From Magnetococcales bacterium (GTDB lineage: Bacteria; Pseudomonadota; Magnetococcia; Magnetococcales; UBA8363), in contig JADFZF010000002.1 of NCBI GenBank assembly GCA_015232645.1, positions 1 to 59,634 on the forward strand: 59,634 bases of DNA, in the 5' to 3' direction. This document shows, one piece after another, positions 18,901 through 46,539 of this stretch. Under the pieces are notes generated by a model. The model ran no database searches. It saw only the letters and a list, made by a program, of their open reading frames with translations, and was not told where the DNA came from. The stretch's first letter is position 1. Each line of letters opens with the position of its first letter. Position numbers and translations under genes: made by a program.

Positions 18901-18935
18901 AATGATGATAACCTTCCAGTCATGTTATCATCATT
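18901..18935 (-). terminator. hairpin overlapping the stop of the 932-aa Hsp70 gene
   Basis: A perfect 12-bp inverted repeat, AATGATGATAAC (18901-18912) with GTTATCATCATT (18924-18935), and an 11-nt loop. On the minus strand it is followed by TAAATTTGCATT. The stem is AT-rich and so weak. Confidence 0.35.
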
Positions 18936-23649: not shown

Positions 23650-23671
23650 GAAAGGGTCCTGGCTAGAGGAT

Positions 23672-24319
23672 TTATTTGAGTTCCACCTGGGCCGGGGCGA
23701 TGGCCGGCAGACGCCCCCCCTGATGGTTGAGGGTGCGTGGCAGTTTAACGCGGTTGGTCTTCCAGCCTTTATGGACCAGGGTTCCGGTGAATGGGGGTTG
23801 ACCGATGATTTTTCCCACCAATTGATGGCTGTCGGGGGCAAATCCAGCGGGTACCACCACGTTGGATCCTTCAGGTTCGTCACGGACCGGGACGATTTCA
23901 AAGTGTTCCAGGAGGGCGCTTCGGCAGCCTTCATGGATGACCCGTGCGGCGGCGCCGACCTGGGCATCCTCGAACGGAGCGATTTCCTCCATCAGGAAGT
24001 CGATGAGCCGTCCCTTTTCCTGAAGAACTCCCAGGAAAGAGACGATATGGGCCTCACAACCGGTGTCACCGGTGGCCGAAGCCTGCGGTCGGATGGCCGC
24101 GGCCCGAGGTTCCTTTCTGACTTTGGTTTTGGTACCGGTCTTGATGACAAAAATCGCCGGCAGCAGCAAAATGGCCACCGCCAGGATCGCCCACATGAGT
24201 TTTTCATGATTTTCCCGGATCATGTCAACCATGGGTCCGGGGACCAATGCCTCGGGAGCAATGGCCGCTGCAACCAGAATGATGATGATGAAAACCGCAA
24301 ACAACGAAACAGATCGCAT
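23672..24319 (-). CDS. DUF2760-like protein with N-terminal transmembrane segments
   Basis: There are two hydrophobic N-terminal helices. GRLIDFLMEEIAPFEDAQVGAAARVIHEGCRSALLEHFEIVPV...GTLVHKGWK...PAIAPAQVEL then matches my recollection of the DUF2760 consensus (GRLvDFLqEdI..ysDaQIGAAaR.VH.gC...L). It is the first gene of the operon with the two Hsp70 genes. Confidence 0.6.
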   Translation of the reverse strand: MRSVSLFAVFIIIILVAAAIAPEALVPGPMVDMIRENHEKLMWAILAVAILLLPAIFVIKTGTKTKVRKEPRAAAIRPQASATGDTGCEAHIVSFLGVLQEKGRLIDFLMEEIAPFEDAQVGAAARVIHEGCRSALLEHFEIVPVRDEPEGSNVVVPAGFAPDSHQLVGKIIGQPPFTGTLVHKGWKTNRVKLPRTLNHQGGRLPAIAPAQVELK

Positions 24320-28454: not shown

Positions 28455-29360
28455 TCATGGGCTGGCGGACCGAATCATGACCTCGCTCAGCAAGGACTTG
28501 AGACGCAACAGGTCCCCGTCCAGGGCGGCCTGGCCCCGCCACCATTGTCCATCGGGAGATTGATGTCCCACTCCCAGGCGAATGTTGGTCAAATGTCGAT
28601 CCATCCGTTGCCGGATCACATGTCCGTGGAGTGCGGCGAAGGGGTCTCTGCGGACGATTTCCCGCAAAACCGCCTCCCCCTCCCGAACTTTCATTGCAGC
28701 GATGGCCAGCCCCTCGGTGCCAATCCGAAACCAGTCTTCGACCAGTCTGCGCGAGTGGCAATCCTGGCACAGGGCCATACGCCATTCCCGGTGAGGCGCC
28801 CCCACCGCCGTCATGAGAGGGGATGGTTCTGCCACCGGATCGGAAGTCCATTGCAGGGAGTGACGACCCCGAGGCAGGTGACAGTAACCGCAGGTCGGCG
28901 AGCGATAATTACCGTCACTCAACCATCGGGAATAATCGCCATCCTCGGCCGCCAAAGTGAGGATCACCCCGTGTTTGGAGATCAGGTAGCTGGCACTTTC
29001 ACGGGGATGACAGCCAAGGCACACTTCATTTTTACGCGCCCGGGCGGCCATGGCCCCATCGTGAATGCTGCCATGGCAGGAGCTGCAATCAACCCGACCC
29101 GGCCGATGACGTGGACTTCTTTCCCAATCCTGGACCAGGTCTTGATCCCGTTGCCGATGGCACTCCGGACAAGCGTTGGGCGGCGTCGGTTCCATCCGCA
29201 TCGCATGGCTGATCCCGGTCATGGCCACCGTCATGGCTAACAACAGACCTGCGAAGACCGGCAGCCGCAGCGAATTTCGTTTGGCAGCCAGGAGGTTAAT
29301 GGTTGTCCCGGTTGAAGCGGGTATATTCCCCGTCCATCCACACCCGTTTGAGGTCCACAT
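28455..29360 (-). CDS. pentahaem c-type cytochrome (shorter paralogue of the upstream octahaem protein)
   Basis: Five CxxCH motifs: CPECH, CSSCH, CLGCH, CGYCH, CQDCH. A hydrophobic signal-like segment LPVFAGLLLAMTVAMTGISHA is present. VQDWERSPRH....VDCSSCHG parallels VKDWRQSRHA....VDCSACHG in the octahaem protein. The ATG at 29360 overlaps the upstream gene by 65 nt, so the start is uncertain. Confidence 0.7.
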   Translation of the reverse strand: MWTSNGCGWTGNIPASTGTTINLLAAKRNSLRLPVFAGLLLAMTVAMTGISHAMRMEPTPPNACPECHRQRDQDLVQDWERSPRHRPGRVDCSSCHGSIHDGAMAARARKNEVCLGCHPRESASYLISKHGVILTLAAEDGDYSRWLSDGNYRSPTCGYCHLPRGRHSLQWTSDPVAEPSPLMTAVGAPHREWRMALCQDCHSRRLVEDWFRIGTEGLAIAAMKVREGEAVLREIVRRDPFAALHGHVIRQRMDRHLTNIRLGVGHQSPDGQWWRGQAALDGDLLRLKSLLSEVMIRSASP

Positions 29361-30600
29361 CCTTGACCATCTTTCCCAAGAGTTTCAGTCGTTCCGTCTG
29401 CGTCGCAATGGTTCTCGAGGTATCGATCATCAGGTCATGACAACCTGACGACATCTTTCTCGCCCCATGGGCCATCCCCTTGTAGGCGCCCGGATTGGCA
29501 AAATACCACATTTCAAAATAATCCCGTTCCACGGCGCTCACGTTGTAGAAGGCCGATTCCATTCCTTCAAGGTCACCGATGCGCACCCGGGGAAACCACT
29601 GCCCCCAGGGATCCGTGGAAAAATGGGGACGGTCGGTCGCCTTCGGCAGCAGCCAACCATGGCGTCGCAATGCTTTGAGCTGATCTTCCACGGCATACAG
29701 TTTTTTCCAGGCGCTCCCGCGTTCCTCATCCAGCGACAGGAAAAAATCTTCCGCAATCGGCGACGGATGACACTCTTTGCAAATGGCCGACCAGCGTTTA
29801 CGTTTAATGGTATTTTCTGCCGTTCTTGGATTGATTTCCCGGATACCCGACTTCCACAGCGACTTGTCGGCGATCAGATGACGGCCATTGGTCATATGGC
29901 ACCCGGCGCAGCCGGGAGCGGGATAATTGCCACGGCGCAGGGGTCGGTTCCAATCCCATTTTTTCCCCTCCCGAAGATAGAATAGGCCGTGTGGCGAGGA
30001 AAAGTAGCTTTGATCGTCAGGGTGTGGCGGACCAGTATGGCAGGTGATGCAGGCTTCGGGCCTGCGGGCCTCGGCGGCAGCAAAACGGTGGCGGGTATGA
30101 CAGGAATCGCATCGCTGGGCCACCGAATGGCAGTGCAGGCAGGCCGCCACTTCCGCCTTGGGTTTTTCGGCAAAAGCCGAACTGTCGGTCAGCCGCTCCA
30201 GGGCCAGGGCATGGCTGGGAAATCCATACCTTTTTTCCTCCTCCATCTGGGCCACGGGCCGGGGATGGCATTGGCCACAGATCGCCGGAGCCGGCAACCG
30301 CAGGCGCTGATGATCGTGGCCATGACAGGCAGAACAATCCACCGGATTTTCACCGCGGGCATGTCGGCTTTGCCGCCAATCCTTGACGATTCCCGGGGTC
30401 AGAGTGGCGTGACATTCCAGACATTCTTCACCTTTGAAGGTTCCGATCACCTTGCGGTCTTGGGGGCGGGAATCGATGCGCGGTTCCCGATCGGCAGAGA
30501 TGGCATCCCCCCTTTGAAGTCGGTTCTCCTGACCGGCACACACCGATACCGGCCACAACCACCCCGCAGCGATCAGAAAGGGGACGATGGCCAGCAGCAT
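29296..30600 (-). CDS. octahaem c-type cytochrome, hydroxylamine-oxidoreductase (HAO) family-like
   Basis: Eight CxxCH motifs: CLECH, CSACH, CGQCH, CLHCH, CDSCH, CITCH, CAGCH, CKECH. I prefer ATG 30600 (MLLAIVPFLIAAGWLWPVSVCAG, a signal peptide) because the ORF-track start 30789 overlaps the upstream gene. Confidence 0.7.
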   Translation of the reverse strand: MLLAIVPFLIAAGWLWPVSVCAGQENRLQRGDAISADREPRIDSRPQDRKVIGTFKGEECLECHATLTPGIVKDWRQSRHARGENPVDCSACHGHDHQRLRLPAPAICGQCHPRPVAQMEEEKRYGFPSHALALERLTDSSAFAEKPKAEVAACLHCHSVAQRCDSCHTRHRFAAAEARRPEACITCHTGPPHPDDQSYFSSPHGLFYLREGKKWDWNRPLRRGNYPAPGCAGCHMTNGRHLIADKSLWKSGIREINPRTAENTIKRKRWSAICKECHPSPIAEDFFLSLDEERGSAWKKLYAVEDQLKALRRHGWLLPKATDRPHFSTDPWGQWFPRVRIGDLEGMESAFYNVSAVERDYFEMWYFANPGAYKGMAHGARKMSSGCHDLMIDTSRTIATQTERLKLLGKMVKDVDLKRVWMDGEYTRFNRDNH

Positions 30601-30650
30601 GCAACGAAATTCGTCGCCATCGAAACCGACCCGACGTGGCCGCGAAGGGG

Positions 30651-31913
30651 CTAGAGTTGGGCTGGGCCGAGTCCACATAAGGTTGCCAATTGACTGATCA
30701 GTTCGTTTCCGGTACCCACCTGGGAGGAAAAATACCCGCCCAGTGCCAGGGCCATTCCCAACAACAGACCGTAGGCCGCCCATTGCCAACGATTGGCGTG
30801 GTTATTGAAACCGGCGAGTTGCCGCAGCCGGTCGCCGTTCTGACGCAAGGAACGGTGCAGCAGATTACGGATATCATGGAAGGCCAGACTTTGAGTGGGA
30901 CATTCGCTGACGCAGCGACCGCAGCCCATGCATTCGGCGGTTTTGATCGCTCCGCTTTGCGCTCCCAGGTGCCAGACCGGGATCCCCATGTCGCATACGC
31001 GCAGGCATCGGTCGCACTGAATGCAACCGGAGGGGTCATAATCGATGCGAAACGGCCCGACCTTGTTCAACAAGCCGAAGGTGGCCCCGAACGGGCACAG
31101 GAATCGACAATATCCCCGATTGCCCAACCACGGAGAGAGAGGCATGCTGCCGTAATAGGTCACCCCGACCGCCAGGGCGAACAATCCCAGATAGGCGGAA
31201 GTCGCGGCATTGGCGGGACGGAGCATGGCCAGCATGGCTCCGAGATAGAGAACAAACCACAGCCATTTGATCCGCCTGAGGCTCCAGGCTCGTGGGCCTC
31301 GCGGGACATGGTCGGCATGGCGAAAGGGAAACCCGACCACTTCGCGAATCCCGACGCACGGGCAGTTGAATCCACATATGATCCGTCGGCCAAACAGGAA
31401 TACGGCGACCATGACCAGGAAAAAGGTCAATGTCCCCGGGGTATGCAACGACGGAAATACCGGCAGCCATCCCAGGTAACCCACATACGGCTCCACAAAG
31501 GGGAACAGGGCGGGGATCCACCACCACAAGACGGTGACATTGACGACAATGATGATCAGCCGTCGGCGGCTGTAGGGATTTTTTTCCGCCCTGATCCGCC
31601 ACAGGCCAAAAACGAGAATGAGGGCACATTCGGTGTATCTGTCGAGCCACCAGGGGGAATCGAAGGCAAATATCCAGGTTTCGTTCAACCAGCCCAAAAA
31701 GGCCCAGGTAAAAACGGCAATCGCCAGCCAACGGACCCATGGAAAATAGCGCCCTGCCAGAGATCGTTGCCGGCTGACGGGGATGAAGCGCAGAGCCGGT
31801 GCGGTAGGGTTGGGGGGGATCGTCATGGGGTGCCCGAAGTCCGTTGCGGTCGAGTGAGCGGGAAGGATCCGGGAGGCGGTCGGCCTCTGCGAGCCATCGG
31901 ATCGTTCAATCAT
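30651..31913 (-). CDS. integral-membrane polyferredoxin (NapH/MauN/NosH-like 4Fe-4S protein)
   Basis: Several hydrophobic helices are present, with CGFNCPC and CRFLCPFG motifs typical of NapH-type proteins. Two ferredoxin motifs follow: CIQCDRCLRVCD and CMGCGRCVSECP. The start is uncertain (M1, or the internal MTIPPNP). Confidence 0.7.
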   Translation of the reverse strand: MIERSDGSQRPTASRILPAHSTATDFGHPMTIPPNPTAPALRFIPVSRQRSLAGRYFPWVRWLAIAVFTWAFLGWLNETWIFAFDSPWWLDRYTECALILVFGLWRIRAEKNPYSRRRLIIIVVNVTVLWWWIPALFPFVEPYVGYLGWLPVFPSLHTPGTLTFFLVMVAVFLFGRRIICGFNCPCVGIREVVGFPFRHADHVPRGPRAWSLRRIKWLWFVLYLGAMLAMLRPANAATSAYLGLFALAVGVTYYGSMPLSPWLGNRGYCRFLCPFGATFGLLNKVGPFRIDYDPSGCIQCDRCLRVCDMGIPVWHLGAQSGAIKTAECMGCGRCVSECPTQSLAFHDIRNLLHRSLRQNGDRLRQLAGFNNHANRWQWAAYGLLLGMALALGGYFSSQVGTGNELISQLATLCGLGPAQL

Positions 31914-32040
31914 CGCGACATCTTAATGCAAAAAAAACACCAGCGGCAACAGACCATTGCCGAAGCGACCGTCCTGCCATACACTTGCCCGACAGCATGG
32001 TGCCTCCTCCATCCCTTTCGATCCCATCCCGCAGGCCCGC

Positions 32041-33141
32041 ATGAACACGACCCATTCATTGCCATCGACCCCACCCAGCTCCCTGTTTTTACGTGCCTGC
32101 CTGGGATTGGAGGTGGAGCGGACGCCGGTGTGGTTGATGCGCCAGGCGGGACGCTACCTGCCGGAGTATCGGGAAGTTCGCAAACTGGCCGGAGATTTTC
32201 TTGCTTTGTGCAAGACCCCGGAACTCGCAGCCCGGGTGACTTTGCAACCCATCGAACGTTTTGCGCTGGATGCCGCCATCCTGTTTTCCGACATTCTGGT
32301 TATCCCCGAGGCCATGGGGATGACTCTGACTTTCCTCGAAGGGGAGGGGCCACATTTCCCCACCCCTCTGAATCGGCCTGCGGAGCTGGAGCGTCTCGTG
32401 CTCCCCGATCCGGAGGTGCAGTTGGGGTATGTATTGAGGGCCGTCCGCACGATTCGCCAACAACTTCCCGCCCCGATCCCACTCATCGGTTTTTCCGGTT
32501 CCCCCTGGACCCTGGCCACCTACATGATCGAGGGGGGGTCCAGCAAAAAGTTCACCCGGATCAAAACCGCCCTTTACGACGATCCCCATTTTCTTGATGC
32601 CCTTCTGGAACGGCTGGCGGTAGCGGTGACCGACTATCTCAACGCCCAGATCGACCATGGGGTGGCGGCGGTACAACTTTTCGACACCTGGGGGGGGGTG
32701 TTAGGTCCCGATGAATATCGCCATTTTTCCCTGGAGCCCATGGCACGCATCATTGCCGGGCTCAAGCGTCTTCGACCCGATGGGACGCGCATCCCCGTCA
32801 TTCTTTTTTCCAAGGGTTGTGGCGGTTACCTCGAGACCATCGCCGCCTCGGGATGTGATGTGATCGGGCTGGACTGGACCACCCCCCTGGATCAGGCCCG
32901 GTCCCGCCTGGGTCCGGCAATAGCACTGCAGGGTAATCTGGATCCTGCCGTCCTCTATGCCCAGCCCGGGCGTATTCGTACCGAGGTCGGACGGGTCCTG
33001 GGAACCATGGGGGGGCAAAACGGACATATTTTCAACCTGGGCCACGGCATCGAACCCAACGTCAACCCGGAACGGGTGGCGGTGCTCGTCCAGACGGTCC
33101 ATGAAGAAAGCCGACGCATCAAACTGAATGTTGTAGCGTAA
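32041..33141 (+). CDS. hemE: uroporphyrinogen decarboxylase
   Basis: ATG 32041. FLRACLGLEVERTPVWLMRQAGRYLPEYREVR is the HemE signature, followed by ILFSDILVIPEAMG and a GF.G.PWTLA block. Confidence 0.93.
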   Translation: MNTTHSLPSTPPSSLFLRACLGLEVERTPVWLMRQAGRYLPEYREVRKLAGDFLALCKTPELAARVTLQPIERFALDAAILFSDILVIPEAMGMTLTFLEGEGPHFPTPLNRPAELERLVLPDPEVQLGYVLRAVRTIRQQLPAPIPLIGFSGSPWTLATYMIEGGSSKKFTRIKTALYDDPHFLDALLERLAVAVTDYLNAQIDHGVAAVQLFDTWGGVLGPDEYRHFSLEPMARIIAGLKRLRPDGTRIPVILFSKGCGGYLETIAASGCDVIGLDWTTPLDQARSRLGPAIALQGNLDPAVLYAQPGRIRTEVGRVLGTMGGQNGHIFNLGHGIEPNVNPERVAVLVQTVHEESRRIKLNVVA

Positions 33142-33699
33142 AATCAAATTCGCGACTCTCTATGTGGAGCCACTGAAGAGACTCCGCACCCCATGCACCA
33201 TAAGCGTAACCGCATATCCATCCAGATCCCCCCAGTCAGTTACAAATCGGCTTGGGTGATTGCATCATTTTCTGCATGTGGTATTGATCCAGAGGATTTC
33301 CAGGTGCGATGTCCCGGCACCCTGGCTCATTTCCATGCCATTGTCCGCTCAAAGATGGTATCATGACGATTGGATGGTTGAGTGTGGTGTGACAGAAGGA
33401 CAAAATGAGTCGGACCAGTGGATGGGAGGGGCCAGGGAAAGGATGGGACCCGGCCAATGGGGTGTGGAGCGAGGCCCGAAGATTTTGATATTTTTCCCCC
33501 ATTAAGGAGGACCACGGGGGCACGCCATGGCCCTCAGGCTTGACGAGTCATCGCGATAAGCCAAAAGGGGGTGTACCTGTTGTTTCGAACCATCGGCATC
33601 GTTGGCCGTCGCTCTCGCCAAAGTACCGGCAGCCGAGGCCCCCGCGCGCGTTTCCCGCGCTGTACACCAACCATGCATCGCGTGACGGGGGAGGAAAAA

Positions 33700-33759
33700 C
33701 CAGCCCTTTGGGTCTGGCACCCAACCCCTGCGGGAAGAGCCCCTTTCCCCAATCCATCC
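33700..33759 (-). repeat. REP-like element, copy D (inverted orientation)
   Basis: The reverse complement GGATGGATTGGGGAAAGGGGCTCTTCCCGCAGGGGTTGGGTGCCAGACCCAAAGGGCTGG is colinear with copies B and C. It lies inside the 724-nt non-coding gap between hemE and the sensor kinase. Confidence 0.55.
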
Positions 33760-33865
33760 GATTCACCACTTCACACCTTCCGAACCAGGTCTTGTATCAT
33801 GGTGGATATTCTGACAAATCCGCGGCCTGACAAAAACTCCATCATGTCAACTTCCGTCTGAAGTC

Positions 33866-36800
33866 TTGAAACTCATGAGTGACCCAGGGATCGAACCCAA
33901 ACGAATACTCCTCATCGACGATCAATATATCACCTATAAATATTTGGATCGTATGATCGATGTCGATGACCTGAAACTTTTCTACTGCCAGGACCCCAGG
34001 CAGGCCTGCCTGGATGCGGAAAAGATACGACCCATGGTCATTCTGCTGGATCTGGTCATGCCGGAGATGGACGGAATGAGCCTGTTGCGGCAATTACGCA
34101 AACATCGGGTGACCAGTAACATTCCCGTCATTCTCCTTACCTCCATCGACGAACCCCAGATCAAGGCCGAAGGGTTTGCGGCTGGCGCCAGCAATTATCT
34201 AGTCAAATTTCCCGATCGGGTGGAGATGATCGCCCGCCTGCGTTATCATGCCCATACCTTTGTGCGCATGGCACGAAAATCAAAGGAATGCGAAGACTGT
34301 ATCGATCTGCTGCAGTCCGCCATCAAAGGGATCGTGATGCTGGATGTCACGTCCAAGGTGATCGTCGATGCCAACGAAACCTTTTGCCAGCTTATGGGGT
34401 ACGACCGCTCCGCCCTTGTGGGCCACCACATGGGGGAATGCGTCCGGATGGAAGATCAGGATTCGGTACAACGGGCGTTGGAGCGGATCCCGCAACCCGA
34501 TCATCGTGTTTACGACGTTTCCCTCCGCCATATTTCGGGAGGTGAGGTTCGGGTGCGCTTTTGTGTGACTGTCGATACCCGTTCCCAGATCGACCGCAAG
34601 GCGATCACGCTGACCTTTGTCCTCGATCGTTCGGAAACCCTGGAAGGTTCCGACTACAGTACCCAATTCCGCCTGCATGCCGATATGATTCCCGGGATGG
34701 TCTGGATGTGCAATCGGGAAATGAAACGGACCTTTTTCAACGATGGTTGGCTGGCCTTTACCGGCAAGATCATGGCTCGCGAACTGGATGACGGCTGGTT
34801 GGAGGGGGTTCATCCCGATGATGCCCCAGGGCTGCGGGTCCATTTTGCCGATGTTTTTGCCTGTCGCCAACGTTTTGCCATGGAATATCGCCTGCGCACC
34901 AAGGATGGGTCCTATCGCTGGGTGTACGACACCGGTTTCCCGTTTTTTGCCCAGGGAGATAACTTTCAAGGTTATACAGGAAGTTGCGTTGATATCAACG
35001 AACGCAAGGGATTTGAGGAACGCTTGCGCAATTTCAACATGGAACTGGAAGCGCGCATCCAGGATCGGACCGTGGAGTTGCAACGGGAGGTGGAAGAACG
35101 AAAAAATGCGCAGATGAAGGAGCGTCGCGCCCGGGAGATACAGAATACCGTCAGCAACATGTTGCGCATTGCCTTGCTCGCCATTCCACTGAAGAAAAAA
35201 TTGGAAACCGCCTTGAGCATGATCGTCAACACCCTCACCGGTGACATGCTGCCCAAGGGGATGATCCTGCTCAAAGATCGGGACCAGGAAACCCTGTCGG
35301 TGGTGGCGCATCGAGGATTCAGCGAACTGTCGCCCCTGCCCTGCTCACGGGTCAAATTCGGCGAGTGCCTGTGCGGAATTGCCGCCCGCCGGCACGAAAA
35401 TATTTTTTCACACCATATCGACGAATTACACTCGATTCGGACCCCGGACATGGAACCCCATGGACACTATTGCCTGCCTTTGCTTTCGGAAGACCGGCTC
35501 CTGGGTGTTTTATCGATCTACGTCAAACACCTGTCCGAATACAATCCGGACAACGAAAAAAATTTCCAGGCTTATGCCCATACCTTGGCCACCATCCTGG
35601 AGCAAAGCCGGACCGAAGAGCTGCAGAAGGAAAAGATGGCCGCCGAGGCGGCTAGCCGCGCCAAAAGCCAATTTTTGGCGACCATGAGCCACGAGATTCG
35701 TACCCCACTGAATGGTATCCTGGGGATGACCAGTCTGCTGTTGACCTCCGAAGTGACCGAAGACCAACGCCGACGTCTCATGCAGATCCACCAATCGGGC
35801 AACAATCTGCTCAACATCCTCAACGATATTCTCGATATCTCCAAAATCGAGGCGGGAATGATGATCGTAGAGTCACGTCCCTTCGTCCTGAACGATGTGA
35901 TCCGTGTCCTCTCCAACTTGGTCGAACGAAAGATTGAAGAAAAACGGTTGGTTTACAGCGTGTCCATTCACCCCGACGTCCCGCAGTTCGTCAAAGGGGA
36001 TTCGGTACGTCTGGGGCAGATATTGAACAATCTGCTGGCCAACGCGGTCAAATTCACCCATGAGGGACGGATTACCCTGAGTATCACCATGGACGAGATC
36101 GAGTTTCATCAAGGGTTGATGCGATTTACCGTTGAGGATACCGGAATCGGCATCTCCCGACAGGTCCTGTCGGGGTTGTTTCAACCCTTCACCCAGGCGG
36201 ACGACTCGACAACGCGCAAATACGGTGGTACCGGGTTGGGGCTGGCCATCAGCCGACGGTTGGTGGAGATGATGGGAGGCACCATCGATGTGGAGTCGGA
36301 ACCGGGCCGCGGCAGCCGGTTCACTTTCACCGTGCGTCTGGGAATCACCCACGAAACATCCACGGGAACAGTACCCGACTCGTTATCTCCCAAGCAGCTC
36401 GTCGCCCAATCCCGACGGGTTCTCAAGGGAGGACGGGTGTTGCTGGTGGAAGATGATCCGATCAATATCGACGTGGCCCGGGATGTATTGCAACAGGTCG
36501 GATTGCAGGTGGAGGTGGCGCACAATGGCATCGAGGCCCTTGCCGCCGTGGTCGGAGATGGCCTGGCGCACAGGAAACACTACGATCTGGTGCTCATGGA
36601 CCTGCTCATGCCCCGCATGGACGGATTCGACGCCACCCGCCTCATCCGCAAACACCTGAGCAAGGAACAACTGCCTATCATCGCCATGACCGCCAGCGCC
36701 ATGAGCGGCGAACGCGAACGATGCCTGAGCGCGGGGATGAACGATCATCTTCCCAAACCGGTGGAGCTGGAGATTCTCTATACGGTTTTGTCGCGCTGGA

Positions 36801-38644
36801 TCCAGATGCCTGATAGGAAGATCGATACCTCGTCCCATCCCCTCCCCCATGCCGCCGAGCCGGGGGAAAGGAAATCGAACCCGGACGACTTCGACTTCAT
36901 CAGAGGCCTCCAAACCATCGACGTGTCCGGCGCGATACGAAAATTCGGCCATAACCCCAAGTTTTACCGCAAATTGCTCCTTGACTTTCGCAAAGGCTAC
37001 GCCGACACCGGCAAGTCCATGGAAGAGGCGATGAATCGCGGTGCCTTGGCGGATGCCAAACGGTTGGCCCACACCATGAAGGGGGTGTCGGGAAACATCC
37101 TGGCCCAAGGACTGGCCGAAGCGGCCCACCAGTTGGAAATCATCATCGGCACCGATCCCGACGTGGAAATGTGCCGCGAGCCATTGCGCCATTTTAACGA
37201 GGCCTTGGCCAAATTGCTTCGGGATCTCGACCCCATCGCAGCGGGTCGGGATCCCGATCCGGTGCCCCCCCCCCCGTCTGTCGTCCAAGGATGCCCCCGA
37301 GGTTCTGGGGCGGTTGGCGGACTGTCTGCGCAGCAACAACGCCCGGGCTTTGGAGATCGTCACGTCGGCCGCGGCCTGGCTGAGAGAGGAGGGATGCGAG
37401 CCGGAATACCAAACCATGTTGGAGTCACTGGAAAAATTCGATTTCAAGGGAGCCATGATGCACTTGAAGATCATATCCGACAAACTGGGGCTCGACCTTT
37501 CGGGAGCCGCCTTATGACCATCGAACCCGTTCGGCGCCAGGTACTGGTGGTGGATGACGATGCCCAGAGCATCCGTCTGTTGCTGGAAGTTCTCCATCCC
37601 CTGGATCTGGAAATAATGGTGGCTACCGACGGTCATACCGCTCTGGAAATCACGGCCCAACACATCCCCGACCTGGTGCTTCTGGATATCATGATGCCCG
37701 ATTTGAGCGGCTACGATGTCTGCCAGGCCATTAAAACCAATGTCGAAACCCGAGACATCCCCGTTATTTTCATCTCCGCCATGTCGGCCACGGAAGATGA
37801 GAGCACCGGTCTTAAACTGGGAGCAGTGGATTACATCACCAAGCCGTTCCAGTTTGAAATCGTCCGTTCGCGGGTGCAAACCCACCTTGAACTGCGTGCC
37901 GCCTACCAGGAATTGGCCCGGATCAATCAAAATCTCATGGAAGAACGGCGGCTGATCGAGCGGGTCCTGGCCAACACCCGGGAGGCGGAGTTGTTGGATC
38001 ATCGCTATCTTTCCACCCACGTCGCCCCCAAGCAGGAGGCGATGGGCGACATACTGTTGGCCGCTTTTCGTCCCGATGGCGCCCAACACGTCATGCTAGG
38101 CGATTTTACCGGACACGGTTTGACGGCGGCCATAGGGGGGCCACTGGTTGCCGATCTTTTTTATGCCCGCACGGCCCGCAATGAACCGATGGAAATCCTT
38201 GTTGATGAAATCAACGCCAAGCTGTTCCGTATCCTCCCCGAAGGGATGTTCATGGCGGCCATTTTTGTGGAAATCAGCCCTGATCGGCGCAAGTGCTCCC
38301 TGTGGAACTGCGGCATGCGCGAGGCCTTTCTGTTCCGCAGCGGGGTTTGCCAGGAACGGCTCTCCTCGACTCATTTCCCACGCGGGCTCATGCGGATCTC
38401 TGAACGCCCGGGAGTCGATCTGGAACTGCGGACCGACGACAAACTGTACCTGTACAGCGATGGATTCGTCGAGGAGATGGATGTTGAGAAACATATGTTT
38501 GGGACCGAACGGCTGCTGCAAATCTTGCAAAAAATTGCTGCTGGCGAAAAAACGTTCGAATTCCTTGCCGAGACTCTGGCCAACTTCCGTCCCAAAGGAA
38601 CCCCTCAAAGCGACGACATGTTCATGGTGGAGGTGAATTGCTAG
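33866..38644 (+). CDS. uninterrupted 1592-aa ORF: a REC-PAS-PAS-GAF-HisKA-HATPase-REC-Hpt hybrid kinase read through a poly-C tract into a REC-PP2C(SpoIIE) phosphatase
   Basis: TTG 33866 or ATG 33875. REC1 has ILLIDDQ and [11 protein letters not shown]. HisKA is [12 protein letters not shown]. HATPase has [28 protein letters not shown]2 has [10 protein letters not shown] and [13 protein letters not shown]. Hpt is [11 protein letters not shown] ~79-aa Gly/Arg-rich segment of non-protein-like composition follows the C run. REC3 then starts at [16 protein letters not shown] (ATG 37514) with [11 protein letters not shown]. The PP2C-like C-terminus has [23 protein letters not shown]. It is probably two genes; see the findings. 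Confidence 0.8.
37265..37275 (+). repeat. 11-nt poly(C) homopolymer inside the coding region
   Basis: GTG CCCCCCCCCCC GTCTG was counted directly in the sequence. It encodes PPPP in the current frame. Confidence 0.95.
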
Positions 38645-38718
38645 GTCAATGCGGTTCCCTATCGGTCTGATAGCGTTATTGCCTTACCAACCCATTGATT
38701 TTTATTGGTGAATGAAAG

Positions 38719-39036
38719 ATGATCGCATACGACAAGGTGGTGGCGGAGCAGAAAGAGTCGGTTCTGACCATCCACATAGCCGGTTGTTTCGGTTATAAGC
38801 TGATTCCCAAATTCCGTAACGCCTACAAAGGGCTTATTGCCGGAGCGCGGATCAGGATCGACCTGGAACGGGTCTACCAGATCGAAAGCGCCGCCCTGGG
38901 GGCGCTGATGGTGATGCGCAATGCTCTGGGAGGCGAAATGGCCGATATCCAGTTGGTCAACCCCTCCAGGGAGGTGCGCACGATTTTGGAGCTGTCGCAA
39001 TACCACCGTGTATTCAAGATCATATCGACTCAATAA
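38719..39036 (+). CDS. STAS-domain protein (anti-sigma-factor antagonist-like, RsbV/SpoIIAA family)
   Basis: 105 aa. The layout is typical of STAS: LTIHIAGCFGYKLIPKFRNAY........IRIDLERVYQIESAALGALMVMRNAL...IQLVNPSREVRTILELSQ. The Ser in YQIES sits at the position of the phospho-site by eye. Confidence 0.7.
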   Translation: MIAYDKVVAEQKESVLTIHIAGCFGYKLIPKFRNAYKGLIAGARIRIDLERVYQIESAALGALMVMRNALGGEMADIQLVNPSREVRTILELSQYHRVFKIISTQ

Positions 39037-39057
39037 AGTTTTATGGAAGGATCGAAA

Positions 39058-40185
39058 ATGAACCAGCCAGTCAGGAAATCGACCGTATTGATCGTCGATG
39101 ACATGCCAAACAACATACGGACCCTGGCAGAAATCTTGAGTGGCGATTATCAAGTTTTAGTAGCCACCAATGGACTCGATGCCTTGCACATCATCGGCTC
39201 GGAAGAGGTAGCGGTGGTTCTGCTTGACGTTATGATGCCGGAAATGGACGGCTATGAAGTGTGCAAAAAGATCAAATCGCTGCCCATCGGCAAGCAGATT
39301 CCGGTCATTTTTGTCACTGCCCGCACCGAAAAATTGGATGAGGCCCATGCCTTGTCTTTGGGGGGGATCGACTTTTTGACCAAACCGGTCCACGCCGCCG
39401 TGGTCCGGGCGCGGATACGCAATCATTTGGCCATGGCGGAAATGATGCGCACCTTGGAACAGCAGAAGGCTCAAATCGAAGAATCGGCCGCCTTCCGGGA
39501 AGAGGTGAACTTTCTCTATCAAACCGACCTCCGTGGCCCCCTGGACCACATCGTCAGCATGATCAACATGTTGGCCTGGAACACCAATTTGACCAAGCAA
39601 CAGGAGGATCTGGTCCTGCCGATCCTGCGCTATACCTACAAACTTTCCAATCTCATCAATTTTTCCATCGAACTGCACAAAATCACCCGGGGTCGGTATC
39701 TTTGCCGTTTCACCAACTTCGATATCCTCAGTCTGATCGATGATTTTCGGACCATCGAAGGCGATTTTTTAAAAAAACGGGAGTATGGCATCCATATTAC
39801 CATCGATGGCACGCCCAGGGGGGATGGTCATACCTTCAAGGTCAAGGGGGATGTTCGTCTATGCTATTCGATCATCAATGCGATTCTGATGAACATCTTC
39901 ACGATTTCTTCACGAGGAGACCGGGTTGACATTGCCTTGACGACCATCAAGACCGATGATCACCAGCTGGCAAGCATTCAGTTTCACAGCCAACACCATA
40001 TCATTCCCAACAGCCCGGAAACGGGGCTAAAGAAAACATTGGTGGCGAAGAAGGATGAAATGAGATGGGAACACGATCTTTATGCCATCCTGCGCATGAT
40101 GAGAATCCAGGAGGGCAACATGAGCCTTGAAAGCACTCCAGAAAACGGTTCGCTCCTCACCCTGTTGTTCCCGCTTCCAGGCTGA
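39058..40185 (+). CDS. receiver domain fused to a degenerate histidine-kinase-like domain (pseudokinase)
   Basis: ATG 39058 follows GGAAGGA; the ORF-track alternative is 39043. REC has VLIVDDMPNN, VLLDVMMPEMDG, TKPV. The H-box position reads QTDLRGPLDHI, with Thr where SHDLRxPL has His. No DxGxG or GxGLG boxes are present (HSQHH and EHDLYA stand in their places). Confidence 0.7.
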   Translation: MNQPVRKSTVLIVDDMPNNIRTLAEILSGDYQVLVATNGLDALHIIGSEEVAVVLLDVMMPEMDGYEVCKKIKSLPIGKQIPVIFVTARTEKLDEAHALSLGGIDFLTKPVHAAVVRARIRNHLAMAEMMRTLEQQKAQIEESAAFREEVNFLYQTDLRGPLDHIVSMINMLAWNTNLTKQQEDLVLPILRYTYKLSNLINFSIELHKITRGRYLCRFTNFDILSLIDDFRTIEGDFLKKREYGIHITIDGTPRGDGHTFKVKGDVRLCYSIINAILMNIFTISSRGDRVDIALTTIKTDDHQLASIQFHSQHHIIPNSPETGLKKTLVAKKDEMRWEHDLYAILRMMRIQEGNMSLESTPENGSLLTLLFPLPG

Positions 40186-43001
40186 TGGAGGCAAGGTTGC
40201 TTCGGGACCAGAAACAACTTGAGATAATCAACGCCATCCAGTCCGACTATATTGGGATGCATCCGTTCAGGACGGTGCTCGCCAAAGGGCTGATGGCGAT
40301 GATGCGTATGACGCACAGCAGCCATGGGCTACTCATCGGATTTGAACCAAACGATGGTCATGACGATGCCCCGTGGGTGTCGGTGACGCTGGTTGAAGGG
40401 GCCGACCTTGCGAAAGATGGCGCTGGGACGGACGGCAACGGCCCCCTGTGGTCCTGGGTCAGGCAGGTCATCGAGAGGGGGGCGGTCAATACATCGGACA
40501 AATGGCCTCGGGAGGTATCGACGTGGTTGCAGAGCGATGGGCGCGGGGTTTCCCTGATGGCCTTGCCCCTGGTTGACGGCCAGAAACTGCTGGGCGGCAC
40601 GATATTGTTCGGTCGCCTCTTGGGGGACGAGCAGACACGGACCACCAGTCTCCAACCTTTGGCCGATACCCTGGCTGCGATCATCAATCGGGAACAGCAC
40701 CAACGCAACCAGAATAAAATTCTGGACGATGCCAAGCAGGCGAGTCGGGCAAAGAGCCATTTTCTGGCCCATATCAGCCATGAGATCCGTACCCCGATGA
40801 ATGTGATTCTGGGCATGGGGCAGTTGCTGTCGAAAACCGATCTCACCCCCAGACAGAAAGATTTGCTTTCCAAAAGTCAGGATGCATCGCAATCGTTGTT
40901 GAACATCATCAACAACGTCCTCGATTTTTCCAAGATCGAAGCGGGGCAACTTGAACTCGAAAGCGTGCCGTTCGCCCTGTCGGGGGTGATGAAACGGGTG
41001 TTGGGACTGATCTCACTCCAATCCATCAGAAAGGGGTTGGAAATTCTATTCGATGTGGCAGCGGATGTACCATCGACATTGGTAGGCGATCCTTTACGGC
41101 TGGAACAGGTACTGACCAATCTCGGGAGCAATGCCGTCAAGTTCACCCAACAAGGTTTGATTATTTTTCGCGTTGGGGTGCGGGAACAGACCGCCACCAA
41201 GGTCACGCTGGGTTTCCAGGTCCAGGATACCGGAATCGGGATGGACCGGGAGCAATCGGCGAAACTGTTTCAACCGTTTCATCAAGGCCTTGCCTCCACC
41301 ACCCGTCAGTATGGAGGCACGGGGCTGGGGCTGGCGATCTCGCAACACCTGGTGCAACTGATGGGGGGAAAGATCGAGGTTGACAGTGTTCCGGGGGAAG
41401 GAAGCCGGTTTCATTTTGTTCTAACCCTGATGTATCGCCAGGAACAGGCGCCCAGATTCAAAGAAACGGCTCTGCCACTTCATGGCCTGAAGGTCCTGAT
41501 CGTGGATGACTGTGAAGATGTCCTTAAAATCATGGCCGGGATGCTAACGACTTTTTCCTTTTCAGTCATTACCGCAGCTTCGGGGGGAGAAGCATTGAAG
41601 ATGTTGGATGGGATGGAGGCCAGGGGTGAAGAATGCGACCTCGTGATCGTCGATTGGCGCATGTCGGGCATGGATGGCATGGAAACCGCCACCAGAATCA
41701 AGGCCAAACGTGGTTCTCGGGAAAAACCACGTATCATCCTGATGACCTCCTTCGGCTGGAATGAGTTGACCAATAACGGTCATGAAGGGATCTTTCAAGG
41801 TTTTCTGCGCAAACCAACGACCTATTCCACTCTGCTGGATACCATCCTGGAATCATTTTCCGGTCGTGTGGCCCAACCTTACGAACCTTTGGAACTTCGC
41901 CGGGTTCCCGCTTCGGTATTGCAGAGGATCCAGGGCATGCGCATCATGGTCGCCGAAGACCACAAGATCAATTGGGAAATCGTGGAAAACTTTTTGGAAT
42001 CGGCGGGTGTGGCGGCCAGCTGGGCCCGCAATGGTCAGGAAGCTGTACACATGGTCGTCCATGGCCAAGAGCAATATGATGCCATCCTGATGGATCTGCA
42101 GATGCCGGTTCTCGATGGGTATGAAGCTTCCAGGCGCATTCTCGAACACTTTCGGAATACCCCCCGACCCGCCATCATCGCCATGACAGCGCATGCGGTG
42201 GTGGCGGAACGGCAAAAATGCTTCGATGTCGGCATGATCGATTTTATTTCCAAACCGGTGGATGCGGGGGAACTCTATCTGGTTCTGTCCAAGATTGACC
42301 GGCCGCTCTTGTCCTCCAGGGAACCGTTGTCCACCAAGGCGACAGCCCAGAACAAGACGTGGCGTTCAGGCCAAGGGCTCGGCGATCTTCCAGGGATCGA
42401 TCTGGCCGATGGGTTGGGGCGGATGGATGGTCGGATCGATCTGCTCAGCCGTCTGATTCGTGACTTTGCCCACCAAAATGCCTCCTTTTTTGACGAACTG
42501 ACCCATCTGCTCAAGGCAGGCGCCCTGCAGGAAGCCAAAAAGAAGGTTCATGACCTCAAAGGGTTGGCTGGCGGGATCTCGGCCCGAAAACTGTGGCTTC
42601 TGGCCATGGACCTGGAGGAGATCCTGGCCGAGGAAACCGCGGAACGGGATGAATTGCTCAAGCGTGTGCAAGAGGCCATGAGCGAGGTGACTGATAGTGC
42701 CCGTCGGCTTGAGGAAGAGGCCAGATCGGCCAGTGGTTCCGAAACGATGCCTTTGCTGGTCACGGTATCCCGGTCGGAATTGTCGGCACTGCTCTCCGGG
42801 CTGAAACATTTGGTGGATCGTGGTGATTTTCAGGCCACGGCGATGTTTCGGGAACTCAAACCGATATTGGTGGCCCAGGGATATGGCGGCATGGCCTCTG
42901 GAATGGAAACCTGCTTGGACAGCTTTGATTTCGTCCGATTCAAGGAGCTGTTAGCCAAAATGATGCAGGAATTGGAAGAAAAAGATGCCTTGATGGCGTG
43001 A
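40185..43001 (+). CDS. hybrid sensor histidine kinase (GAF-like - HisKA - HATPase - REC - REC - Hpt)
   Basis: HisKA is ISHEIRTPMNVI. HATPase has [28 protein letters not shown]1 has VLIVDDCED and LVIVDWRMSGMDG. REC2 has IMVAEDHKIN and ILMDLQMPVLDG. Hpt is VHDLKGLAGG. The ATG overlaps the upstream TGA by 1 nt. Confidence 0.85.
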   Translation: MEARLLRDQKQLEIINAIQSDYIGMHPFRTVLAKGLMAMMRMTHSSHGLLIGFEPNDGHDDAPWVSVTLVEGADLAKDGAGTDGNGPLWSWVRQVIERGAVNTSDKWPREVSTWLQSDGRGVSLMALPLVDGQKLLGGTILFGRLLGDEQTRTTSLQPLADTLAAIINREQHQRNQNKILDDAKQASRAKSHFLAHISHEIRTPMNVILGMGQLLSKTDLTPRQKDLLSKSQDASQSLLNIINNVLDFSKIEAGQLELESVPFALSGVMKRVLGLISLQSIRKGLEILFDVAADVPSTLVGDPLRLEQVLTNLGSNAVKFTQQGLIIFRVGVREQTATKVTLGFQVQDTGIGMDREQSAKLFQPFHQGLASTTRQYGGTGLGLAISQHLVQLMGGKIEVDSVPGEGSRFHFVLTLMYRQEQAPRFKETALPLHGLKVLIVDDCEDVLKIMAGMLTTFSFSVITAASGGEALKMLDGMEARGEECDLVIVDWRMSGMDGMETATRIKAKRGSREKPRIILMTSFGWNELTNNGHEGIFQGFLRKPTTYSTLLDTILESFSGRVAQPYEPLELRRVPASVLQRIQGMRIMVAEDHKINWEIVENFLESAGVAASWARNGQEAVHMVVHGQEQYDAILMDLQMPVLDGYEASRRILEHFRNTPRPAIIAMTAHAVVAERQKCFDVGMIDFISKPVDAGELYLVLSKIDRPLLSSREPLSTKATAQNKTWRSGQGLGDLPGIDLADGLGRMDGRIDLLSRLIRDFAHQNASFFDELTHLLKAGALQEAKKKVHDLKGLAGGISARKLWLLAMDLEEILAEETAERDELLKRVQEAMSEVTDSARRLEEEARSASGSETMPLLVTVSRSELSALLSGLKHLVDRGDFQATAMFRELKPILVAQGYGGMASGMETCLDSFDFVRFKELLAKMMQELEEKDALMA

Positions 43002-43047: not shown

Positions 43048-46000
43048 TCAACTGTTCTTGCCCGCGACCGTCGGTAACGGCAATTCCATGATGCTGGATA
43101 CATAACTATTCAAACGGTCATACAAGGCCTCGGTATCTTTTTTGAGAATTTCCACCATGGTGAGGTTTTCAGGAGTATAGGGGTGAGGTGCAGCCAGGAT
43201 GGTTTCAATGCGGCCCAATATTTGATCCGCCTCTTTGGGGGCCTGATTGATCAGAGTCTGATTGAGTTGATGATTGACGCGAATGACGGGCGAAGGATAA
43301 CCTTTGGTTTTGAAATCGGTCTCCTTTTGGCGGATGCGAATAAATAGTGAGCTGATATTGTTGAATATTTTCCTAACTTCGAGGAGACGGGCATCCAGAA
43401 GATCGGCGATGCCTTCCACATCCTTCCATTTCTTCTTTTCATCCTCGCGAACCAGGGCCAGTTGGGTGTGGGCCTCCCGGAGCAGTCTTTGTCCGCAATC
43501 CTTGAGCTTTTTCCCGGTATTCTCATTGTTGGTCCCGGAAAACAGCAGGCCAGAATCGATGAAATTGAGCACGTCGGCGACGATTTCCAAATTCAGATCC
43601 ATGACGGTCTCGATGTAGTCCAACGCCTCAACCAACTCTCTCAAAGAGGTGGCCGCGACCATGAGCGGCAGGACTCCCATGGTTTCCAATATTTTTTTTT
43701 CAAAGGCATACAGATTGAATTCGAATTCGGAATATTGAATTTCCCAATGATAGGAAAGATGCTGCCCATATTTTTTTCTAATTTCAGCGATCGGATAGAA
43801 AATTTCATTATAAATGATGGCGACGGACTTTTCGTAGATGACGTGGATTTCGGGTTGCAACCGATACAACTGGTCGCGAAGGTTGGAATACTGGTCCAGC
43901 CGGGAGCAAAATTTCATGCGCCAATGATAAAACGTCAAAGGAAACCAGTCCGGAGGGGATTGAAAGCCGCGAGTGACAAGCATGGCTCCGAGTCTGGATA
44001 GGTGGGAGGTGAGACGGCGAATGCCTCGAGAGAGAGGCGTCAGAGCCAGGACAATGTTCCATATTCCCTTTTCAGGAGGCTGTTTGGACGTTTTTTTAGA
44101 CCGTCCCAGCTGCCAAAAGATGGTTTGATCGACTTCCATTTTGGTCCGTTCGCCATTTTCCTGCATGAAGCGGCTGATCTCGGCCAAGGTGGAGCGCTGG
44201 AACCTCCGGGGAGAGATGGGGCCAAAATAAAAACCATGGAGCCAGTCATGAAAATGGTTGTTTTTGGGATGAAGCAACCGTTGCAGGGCTGCCAGTCGAA
44301 CGTTATAGCATCGGGCCCAGGAGGTTCGATGGCAGGTGAACACTCGGTAAAGCCAGTTAACGCCGGCCTCCAGAGGGTGTCGATCCTGAGGATGTTTGGT
44401 TTCCGGATCGATTTTTTCGATTTGTTTGTAGAAGCGCAGTTCAGCGGCGATGCGGGTAAAGCGCAGATCGCCCCCCAGGAGGCACCGGGCTTGGCTGGCG
44501 TCGAGCCACTCGGTGGTCACGGCGATGAAAGAAGACTCCCATGTTTTCAGTTCTTCGAGACGCATGGCGACCAGAGTACGGTCCGATCGGCCGCAGCGAC
44601 CGATGACAGGCGCAAACAGGAGAAGATCGCCCAGCATGATGCCGCTGGCCAACACCGTGATCAGCGTCAGCAAGGCCGGATCGGACCAAAAGCCGTGGCC
44701 CAAGCCGGGAATGCCAGCGAATGCCAGCGACGTCCGGTATGGGATTCCGGGGAGCTGATCGGGAGTCATGGCAGCAACGCCACGACCGGACCAGGCGGTC
44801 ACGTCGGAAGCGATGGCATCATCGTCGAGATTGAGGGTGGCGGAGGGTAGCACGAACCGAAGGATGGGCCGATAGCCATGGATCAACTCGGCGACATCCT
44901 CCCGGGCTTGCCGGCAGGAGGCCCTGACATTCTCCAGATCCTGACCGATGTCAGCGACCCGGGCGTTGATCTGGAAGAGGTTCATGAACAGAACGAGCTT
45001 GATTGTGGCCCGGATCCCTCCCTCCCGGTCGGCCAGGGCGTGCAGCGCGGCGAGCTGCTCGCGAACCCTGGCCTGGATTTTGTTCAGTCGTTGGTTGCAT
45101 GCATCGACGAGCAGCCCGGACTTGTCTCTGAAGGAAGAAAAAAAATCGATCCCTGAGGAAGCCAGGAGTGCATCAAGATGTTTTGAAAGCGACGAGGGGT
45201 TGGAAATTTCCACATCGGAGATACCGGGTTCGTATCCCCCATGGATGATAAAATGCGCGGCCCAAAACCGGGGGCTCTTGCGCAGGCTGGGATCGGAGGT
45301 GGTGATGGGCTCGGCCTCGACCACAGGGAGACGCTCCCAAGATCGAACCAAGGCCTCGACATCTTCCTTGAGGGTGTCCCGAAGGCCGTAGAGGGAATCG
45401 GGACGAGGCGGCCCGGTGGCCGTCGCCTGACCCAGGGAAGCATCGACTATCCTCTCGACGCGATCGACATACTGGGTCACCATCTCCCTTTCGGAAAGGA
45501 TGGCGATGATGATATCGTTGCCGGCCTTGATGGCCACCAGGGCGCATAGCCCCACCAGGGTCATCCATCGGGGGTGGATCAGGAACGCCTGACGGATTCC
45601 GGCAAGCACTCCCCCAGCTTCGGCAACCCGTTGCAGAAGACGATTTTTGCCATCCAGCACCACGGTGGCAATCATCACTCCCACGAACAAGGCGGTGATC
45701 TGGCGAAGCCAAGCTCCCCGATCGCCTTGAAAGGCTAACGGATTGTGTGCAACGGTCGCATCCTGGAGAAAGTCGTTCAGGTCGAAAAAAATGGCGCCGG
45801 CGGAGACCAGGAAGAGCAGGATCGCCATCGGACCCCGCAAAAGAACCCCATAGGCCCGCACCATGTCGGTCACATTGGACAGCCTGCCTCCCAATGCCTT
45901 GGGACGCCGCCAGAGTTCCCGCATCGTGGGGGCTGAGCGGATCATTTCCGGCAGAGGAGGCAATCGTTCCATGATCTGGTTGTGCAGGAAGCGAAACAAT

Positions 46001-46539
46001 CCCAGACGCGTGGCGTGAAAAAGCATGAGGACGATCTGATGGAAGGGATTTTCCACCAGACTGTCTTCACGCCCCGAAGACAGGTGTTCGCGAAACTGTT
46101 TTAATGCCAGACTGACGGGTTGACCGGCCGAGGGTTGACTTTGCTCTTCCCTGAGATTATTTCGGTAATGCTCGACACTGCGAATTATTTTATTCTTATC
46201 CTCTTCACTGAGGATTTTTTGTAAATTGTTACCAAACCCCTCCCCTGGGCCATGGCCATCTGGGGATCCCGGGGAAGTCGCGGAGGGATGGGATGGCGAT
46301 GGATACCATTTGGGCATGCCCGAGGGATCGGCCAAGCTAGGACGATCTCCTGGGGTTGGGATGGCGGCTGCGGCATCGGCGGTCGTATTCCGGGATGCGA
46401 ACGGGTTGGGATCATCCTCGGGTCGAGTCAAAAACAGGTGATCGACCCATGCGCCATACAGTTTGAACAGGGTATCGGTAGTCATGAAACCCGAAGCGTT
46501 CCCCGCTGGGCTGGCTGAAGTTGAACGATTTTGAATCAT
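43048..46539 (-). CDS. large hypothetical membrane protein (1163 aa), no recognisable domain
   Basis: A long uninterrupted ORF with protein-like composition. The N-terminal ~130 aa are Pro/Ser/Gly-rich. At least four hydrophobic helices are present (AILLFLVSAGAIFF, ITALFVGVMIATVVL, MTLVGLCALVAIKAG, LLTLITVLASGIMLGDLLLFAPVIG). The C-terminal third is helical and rich in charged residues. I recognise no catalytic motif. Confidence 0.6.
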   Translation of the reverse strand: MIQNRSTSASPAGNASGFMTTDTLFKLYGAWVDHLFLTRPEDDPNPFASRNTTADAAAAIPTPGDRPSLADPSGMPKWYPSPSHPSATSPGSPDGHGPGEGFGNNLQKILSEEDKNKIIRSVEHYRNNLREEQSQPSAGQPVSLALKQFREHLSSGREDSLVENPFHQIVLMLFHATRLGLFRFLHNQIMERLPPLPEMIRSAPTMRELWRRPKALGGRLSNVTDMVRAYGVLLRGPMAILLFLVSAGAIFFDLNDFLQDATVAHNPLAFQGDRGAWLRQITALFVGVMIATVVLDGKNRLLQRVAEAGGVLAGIRQAFLIHPRWMTLVGLCALVAIKAGNDIIIAILSEREMVTQYVDRVERIVDASLGQATATGPPRPDSLYGLRDTLKEDVEALVRSWERLPVVEAEPITTSDPSLRKSPRFWAAHFIIHGGYEPGISDVEISNPSSLSKHLDALLASSGIDFFSSFRDKSGLLVDACNQRLNKIQARVREQLAALHALADREGGIRATIKLVLFMNLFQINARVADIGQDLENVRASCRQAREDVAELIHGYRPILRFVLPSATLNLDDDAIASDVTAWSGRGVAAMTPDQLPGIPYRTSLAFAGIPGLGHGFWSDPALLTLITVLASGIMLGDLLLFAPVIGRCGRSDRTLVAMRLEELKTWESSFIAVTTEWLDASQARCLLGGDLRFTRIAAELRFYKQIEKIDPETKHPQDRHPLEAGVNWLYRVFTCHRTSWARCYNVRLAALQRLLHPKNNHFHDWLHGFYFGPISPRRFQRSTLAEISRFMQENGERTKMEVDQTIFWQLGRSKKTSKQPPEKGIWNIVLALTPLSRGIRRLTSHLSRLGAMLVTRGFQSPPDWFPLTFYHWRMKFCSRLDQYSNLRDQLYRLQPEIHVIYEKSVAIIYNEIFYPIAEIRKKYGQHLSYHWEIQYSEFEFNLYAFEKKILETMGVLPLMVAATSLRELVEALDYIETVMDLNLEIVADVLNFIDSGLLFSGTNNENTGKKLKDCGQRLLREAHTQLALVREDEKKKWKDVEGIADLLDARLLEVRKIFNNISSLFIRIRQKETDFKTKGYPSPVIRVNHQLNQTLINQAPKEADQILGRIETILAAPHPYTPENLTMVEILKKDTEALYDRLNSYVSSIMELPLPTVAGKNS

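Follow-up and report, generated by a model that had tools for sequence, protein, structure and literature searches.

This study concerns an 11-cytosine homopolymer in a 59,634-nucleotide (nt) stretch of a Magnetococcales bacterium (assembly GCA_015232645.1, contig JADFZF010000002.1, positions 1 to 59,634 of the forward strand), hereafter the window. The run lies inside a gene for a hybrid histidine kinase, and at its assembled length the kinase is read without a stop into the next gene, which encodes a response regulator with a receiver (REC) domain and a SpoIIE-type PP2C phosphatase domain (REC-PP2C). Our comparison with related loci indicates that this locus is very probably a two-gene, translationally coupled unit in a conserved operon, and that the apparent fusion of kinase and phosphatase is a by-product of a frameshift at the C run and not an evolved architecture. 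The initial annotation of the window had proposed two coupled genes as the real architecture, a proposal now borne out by orthologues, synteny and codon usage. Nothing in our results contradicts the two-gene reading.

The run at 37265-37275 consists of exactly 11 C in the context GGTG-C11-GTCTG and is the longest homopolymer of the window, the runners-up being four 9-nt runs (G9 at 32690 and T9 at 9409 among them). The mechanical open reading frame (ORF) through it, 33866..38644 on the + strand, encodes 1592 amino acids (aa) and opens at TTG 33866; ATG 33875 is likely the true kinase start, giving 1589 aa, because it matches the N-termini of the orthologues and the database call for the same product (P0001). 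Pfam domains follow each other in the 1592-aa translation in the order REC, PAS, PAS, GAF, HisKA, HATPase_c, REC, HPt (residues 1037-1118), REC (1226-1337) and SpoIIE/PP2C (1403-1589), with the phospho-accepting His of the hybrid kinase within AHTMKG. About 100 residues between the HPt domain and the REC domain of the second gene have no Pfam match. Over the DNA behind the run, the fused frame reads as a Gly/Arg-rich out-of-frame stretch of about 80 aa, and the alternative frame ends in SGAAL at a TGA codon (37515-37517) that overlaps ATG 37514 as ATGA.

Changing the length of the tract in silico switches the reading frame among three outcomes. With 10 or 13 C, a kinase of 1213/1214 aa from the ATG (1216/1217 from the TTG) stops at 37515 and is followed by a separate 376-aa gene; with 8, 11 or 14 C, the two are fused; with 9 or 12 C, the kinase is truncated to 1168/1169 aa by a stop at 37381. 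The initial annotation had predicted a kinase of about 1216 aa plus a 376-aa REC-PP2C protein for 10 or 13 C and one 1592-aa fusion for 11 C, and the simulated run lengths reproduced both. Its description of the locus (11 C, the 1592-aa ORF, the alternative frame and the TGA/ATG overlap) was also correct throughout on re-reading.

The evidence for two genes comes above all from the kinase orthologues. When the 10-C form of the kinase was used as a query, six orthologues (43-76% identity, 1189-1220 aa) covered 99-100% of it, and the window's own 1589-aa product P0001 covered only 93%. The closest orthologues are P0002 from a Magnetococcales metagenome-assembled genome (MAG; 76% identity, 1217 aa) and P0003 from Magnetococcus sp. 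THC-1_WYH (75% identity, 1211 aa), followed by P0004-P0007 at 43-47% identity (1189-1220 aa). By tblastn, the kinases of the relatives match the window in one frame from 33866/33875 to 37237/37240. The tail in the alternative frame, which follows the C run, aligns to the C-termini of all six orthologues; the motif L..L...L...N..AL...L...DF..A...L is invariant in the seven aligned sequences, and the window keeps every invariant residue (L, N, A, L, L, D, F, A, L). When the 79-aa tail was searched by phmmer against 1.84 billion representatives, the best match was to residues 1142-1213 of the 1217 in P0002 (E=1.6e-8); the other matches of this single-sequence search were multi-stretch and probably spurious. 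An orthologue at 45% identity carries the same tail at its end and has no REC-PP2C gene downstream, and thus the tail is the kinase's own C-terminus. Moreover, the tail of the window is 28.9% identical to those of the outgroups P0004-P0007, compared with 24-26% for the tails of the relatives; because this identity is no lower than theirs, the tail is undecayed, and any real frameshift must therefore be recent. On the other hand, the linker between the HPt domain and the tail is poorly conserved, varying in sequence and length among the orthologues and reading PDPVPPP in this lineage.

The tail is conserved beyond the close relatives, being present also in three distant hybrid-kinase fragments from metagenomes, and it had no match in Pfam, NCBIfam or PDB sequences. 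The AlphaFold model of one of these fragments places four helices after the HPt bundle, with a pLDDT (predicted local distance difference test score) of about 76-87; in a Foldseek search with the model of a homologue, only the HPt half was matched. We note here a conserved helical post-HPt module of about 75-80 aa (37278-37514, + strand), in which L..L...L...N[AS].AL is followed after about 30 residues by [FL]DF..A...L. An analogous tail with SFDF (…CLDSFDFVRFKELL…) follows the HPt domain at the end of the second hybrid kinase in the cluster, and the diverged form of the module there lies at about 42774-42998 (+).

The same arrangement is evident at the DNA level. We compared four Magnetococcales loci, namely L001/L004 (nWRX3bin12), L002 (THC-1_WYH), L003 (HA3dbin1) and L005 (nWRX3bin6), from genomes that the literature places in a freshwater Magnetococcales clade including HA3dbin1. 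In all four, the HPt domain and the tail form a single high-scoring tblastn segment in one frame, and the stop codon of the kinase overlaps or directly adjoins the start codon of a REC-SpoIIE gene that stands by itself and encodes 376 aa (ATGA, GTGA or TAATG). Homopolymers in the last 400 nt of the four kinase genes reach 5 nt at most, with no more than C5 at the site itself, and in a MAFFT alignment of the DNA both relatives included have a single gap, of 1 nt, opposite the C run. A more distant relative (L021, 47% identity) likewise has a separate kinase (1220 aa), REC-SpoIIE protein (371 aa) and STAS protein. Kinase and REC-PP2C gene are thus separate in all five of these loci, which is the outcome of the comparison of orthologous loci that the initial annotation had proposed as a check. 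The phosphatase side agrees: the 120 best REC-PP2C homologues are 369-415 aa long, apart from one of 503 aa with a PAS domain, and neither HisKA nor HATPase was found in any of these 120. In front of the REC-PP2C start, where the window has the Shine-Dalgarno-like GGGAG, the relatives carry GGAAGG or GGAAAA.

Codon usage also separates the frames. Over the DNA behind the run, the tail frame scores +39.8 bits, the fused frame -9.5 bits and the third frame -72 bits; 79-codon reference windows score 33.6 +/- 13.9 bits in frame and -43.5 +/- 17.6 bits off frame. The run itself and the long read-through are less telling. Dinucleotide-preserving shuffles of the window contain on average 0.36 C11 runs (at least one in 21 of 100 shuffles) and 1.32 C10 runs, and by this measure the C11 run alone is statistically unremarkable. 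The -1 frame is open for at least 79 codons at 18% of positions in the confident genes of the window, and where two genes meet as ATGA, a shift to the -1 frame leads by itself into the frame of the second. Read-through into the next gene is an expected outcome of a one-base shift beside such a junction, to be seen in about 18% of cases. What stands above chance is the coding signal of the alternative frame and its conservation in orthologues.

These data suggest how the fused ORF arose. The Pro-rich linker between the HPt domain and the tail very probably became a poly-C tract in this lineage only, the in-frame form being 10 C (V-P-P-P-R-L) and the assembled sequence having one C more. After the extra C, the kinase is read in the -1 frame, meets no stop for 79 codons and enters the frame of the downstream gene; in the resulting ORF of 1589/1592 aa, the kinase loses its tail and is joined to REC-PP2C via the out-of-frame Gly/Arg-rich stretch. 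The extra C very probably comes from slippage on a 10-C run, either in vitro (amplification, base-calling or assembly) or in cells, as a recent or heteroplasmic slipped-strand mutation. In the intact system, the phosphoryl group would presumably pass from the His of HisKA to the Asp of the kinase REC, then to the His of HPt and finally to the Asp of the REC domain in the PP2C protein. By analogy with HptB-HsbR-HsbA and CrsR-CrsA partner switching, this phosphorelay to REC-PP2C may control dephosphorylation of the STAS protein. If the 11 C are real, all annotated catalytic domains survive and the kinase loses only its tail; moreover, REC-PP2C could still be translated separately via its own Shine-Dalgarno-like GGGAG.

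The initial annotation had left a choice between a homopolymer error and slipped-strand variation. Whether the extra C was added in vitro or in cells is finely balanced: an artefact has about an even chance, and a genuine allele has a chance somewhat short of even. Several observations weigh against one side or the other. Inside long open frames of the window there are 38 other homopolymers of 7-9 nt, none of which interrupts the frame, and full-length Pfam matches span several of them, for example G9 in hemE and C8 at 12389 in a gene for an HrpA-like helicase. Such clean runs argue against a platform with systematic homopolymer errors, and so against an artefact, though they are compatible with slippage or miscalling in vitro at a single G/C run of much greater length; when a G10 tract is amplified with Taq, the products are 9-, 10- and 11-mers (PMC1891110). 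For a genuine allele, on the other hand, the difficulty is that selection should act against the loss of an intact, conserved tail, except where the change is very recent. Nor do independent sequences come to the support of either side. Neither the 376-aa nor the 1589-aa protein had an independent copy on record when looked up as an exact product, and a pattern of the two flanks with a spacer of 6-16 bases had 0 matches in genome contigs and 0 in metagenome contigs. A protein search with the HPt domain and tail returned only the three distant hybrid-kinase fragments and no near-identical ones, a search for related loci in metagenomes returned only relatives at <=39% identity, and a megablast against plasmids gave no match. 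P0001 is the single member of its cluster in the public protein collection, and the 376-aa product of the contig has no separate record. Other frameshifts were sought in the contig and none was found; the overlapping ORF pairs at 6953-9786, 28455-30789 and 1286-4071 carry complete, distinct domains.

Three other explanations have to be weighed against an accidental frameshift between two coupled genes. One takes the fusion at face value, as an evolved and functional HK-REC-HPt-linker-REC-PP2C protein in which the Gly/Arg-rich stretch is a genuine flexible linker. The ORF is indeed open with all Pfam domains intact, and it is mechanistically plausible to tie the donor of a phosphorelay to its acceptor. 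Against this, codon usage in the linker frame is that of non-coding sequence; orthologues preserve the overlapping alternative frame residue by residue; a fusion occurs in none of the 6 kinase orthologues, nor in any of the 120 best REC-PP2C homologues; and the junction retains both the ATGA stop/start overlap and a Shine-Dalgarno sequence. We regard an evolved fusion as extremely unlikely, and the present data largely refute it. Another explanation is programmed recoding of a true 11-C sequence, by which one mRNA would give both the separate proteins and the fusion, the tail frame being regained in a constant share of the products through a +1 slip of tRNA-Pro on CCC-C (promoted by poly-Pro stalling) or through transcriptional slippage. 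The run offers three consecutive CCC-C sites (GTG CCC CCC CCC CCG), the shift required to regain the conserved frame is +1, and CC[C/U]-[C/U] is documented as +1-slippery, with a rate that reaches about 1% in E. coli when the motif lies at the second codon (PMC4519876). However, no orthologue has or needs a frameshift here, whereas programmed sites are normally conserved; behind the run, the 0 frame stays open for 79 codons and shows no obvious hungry codon; shuffled controls give more stable folds than the RNA of 37255-37360 (z=+1.41); 33000-40000 has no Rfam match; and the rates of non-programmed slippage are low (PMC4519876). Recoding thus seems very unlikely.

The third explanation is a selected phase-variable (contingency) site, at which slipped-strand mispairing would switch between the separate pair, a tail-less tethered fusion and a truncated kinase and thereby diversify the signalling output. 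A G/C run of 10-11 is long enough for hypermutability, the annotated domains are retained in each of three distinct frame outcomes, homopolymers elsewhere in the assembly are clean, and Bordetella phase variation offers a precedent, driven by a poly-C frameshift in bvgS, likewise a hybrid kinase gene (PMC1891110). The tract is absent, however, from the four close relatives and from the more distant orthologues, with no sign of selected maintenance; its length does not go beyond what the shuffles give, and the read-through is an accident to be expected. We consider a selected site unlikely. The suggestion in the initial annotation that the run toggles between fused and separate proteins, in the sense of a functional switch, found no evidence here, and with the tract absent from all relatives this is not a conserved contingency locus. 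That the 11-C allele is real and the tract a working switch between free and tethered phosphorelay partners, perhaps with +1 slippage of tRNA-Pro on CCC-C, is a quite improbable idea; were it true, a partner-switching pathway would be rewired stochastically within a population of a free-living magnetotactic coccus. The two-gene reading with an accidental frameshift is therefore the one we adopt for the features in Table 1.

Table 1. Features of the kinase/REC-PP2C locus and the signalling cluster downstream of it (positions in the window).
Feature	Position	Strand	Basis and remarks
Hybrid histidine kinase up to the C run, REC-PAS-PAS-GAF-HisKA-HATPase_c-REC-HPt	33875..37264	+	Pfam; orthologues P0002-P0007 align from the N-terminal MSDP..
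11-C homopolymer	37265..37275	+	Non-conserved Pro-rich linker (PDPVPPP) between HPt and C-terminal tail; +1 base relative to the conserved frame
Kinase C-terminal tail, about 80 aa (RLSSKD...SGAAL)	37276..37517, frame of 37278	+	Ends at TGA 37515-37517; orthologue alignment, codon usage, phmmer
Shine-Dalgarno-like GGGAG, 7 nt 5' of ATG 37514	37502..37506	+	Read from the sequence; putative function
REC-PP2C (SpoIIE-type phosphatase) response regulator, 376 aa	37514..38644	+	Pfam Response_reg and SpoIIE; separate gene in five loci
STAS-domain protein (anti-sigma-factor antagonist type), presumed PP2C substrate	38719..39036	+	Pfam STAS, NCBIfam ant_ant_sig; syntenic in all relatives
REC protein, 380 aa, with a C-terminal part of about 250 aa without family match	39043..40185	+	Conserved cluster member
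Second hybrid kinase, HisKA-HATPase-REC-REC-HPt	40185..43001	+	Syntenic

The two genes belong to a cluster that is kept in the four close relatives and comprises the kinase with HPt, the REC-PP2C gene, the STAS gene, the gene for the REC protein and the second hybrid kinase with HPt; the relative at 47% identity has at least the first three of these genes. The 380-aa REC protein (39043-40185, +) also lies between the STAS gene and the second kinase in the relatives, and it might supply a kinase/anti-sigma function that is absent from the REC-PP2C protein. Directly downstream of the cluster, on the opposite strand, 43048-46539 (-) encodes a 1163-aa protein without Pfam or NCBIfam match, whose position is kept in the four close relatives. 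Synteny with the relatives holds on the 3' side of the kinase and not on the 5' side (window 31957-33874 compared with 1-6426 of L001 and 1-8000 of L002). The 5' side in the relatives carries CheA-CheB-REC/GGDEF followed by a variable insert (HTH and Gp49-like in L001, PDDEXK_2 in L002); in the window, hemE is followed by about 730 bp in which there is no confident gene. Another slippage-prone tract, G9 at 32690-32698 (+), is in frame within this hemE gene (uroporphyrinogen decarboxylase, full-length Pfam match). Elsewhere in the window, a 1001-aa protein that combines an N-terminal TIR domain with a radical-SAM domain (15393-18398) adjoins two HSP70-like proteins (18931-21729 and 21805-23967), one of them with DUF3731 ('DnaK-related'); all three genes are on the - strand and may form a defence-type cluster.

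For users of the public record, the 1589-aa P0001 is a frameshift chimera and provides no evidence for HK-HPt-REC-PP2C fusions. The proper annotation would be two genes, or a frameshifted kinase and a REC-PP2C gene. An error of this kind is invisible to gene callers, since the frameshift leaves the ORF longer, not broken.

With regard to signalling, the nearest known systems are HptB-HsbR-HsbA of Pseudomonas aeruginosa and CrsR-CrsA of Shewanella, which share with the cluster an HPt donor, a regulator with REC and PP2C domains, and an adjacent STAS antagonist (PMC6482189). Several of the REC-PP2C homologues are named 'HptB-dependent secretion and biofilm response regulator' by the Joint Genome Institute (JGI). 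HsbR and CrsR, however, have a third domain of the Ser-kinase/anti-sigma type (PMC6482189), whereas the 376-aa protein has only REC and SpoIIE; judged by its predicted domains, it thus fails to qualify for the HsbR family proper, the Ser-kinase/anti-sigma domain being missing. In addition, the HPt domain here is within the hybrid kinase, unlike the separate HPt protein of HptB-HsbR-HsbA, and no sigma or anti-sigma partner of the cluster was identified.

With regard to the frameshift itself, the locus resembles tRNA-Pro +1 frameshifting in its CCC-C sites and in the direction of the shift needed (PMC4519876). Slippage of tRNA-Pro on CCC-C is, however, a low-frequency translational error (PMC4519876), and nothing here indicates programming. 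The locus is also like the homopolymer indels and pseudo-fusions of draft genomes and MAGs, since the single-base discrepancy falls exactly at the longest homopolymer, is repaired by 1 nt and leaves the downstream sequence undecayed. It differs from platform-wide homopolymer errors in that 0 of the 38 other 7-9-nt runs break the frame, and a genuine allele is about equally likely. In Campylobacter and Helicobacter, the length of poly-G/C tracts decides whether adjacent ORFs are read as one protein or two; these organisms have many such tracts, whose presence is conserved and whose length differs among reads from one culture. Our locus, in contrast, has one lineage-specific tract.

Finally, the bvgS gene of Bordetella pertussis (C6/C7) is like our locus in that a C run lies inside a hybrid sensor kinase gene and one additional C alters the C-terminal part of the kinase (PMC1891110). 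In bvgS, the shift truncates and inactivates the kinase, and the switch is experimentally reversible with a phenotype (PMC1891110); here, only an unannotated tail is removed with read-through into the next gene, and the tract is not common to the relatives. Nothing found here favours a bvgS-like switch over a trivial slip. If the 11-C allele is both real and variable, it would represent a bvgS-like poly-C switch in an environmental, non-pathogenic bacterium. Homopolymer frameshifts, artefactual as well as real, are commonplace, and among them the C6/C7 run of bvgS is the closest precedent for the C run described here.

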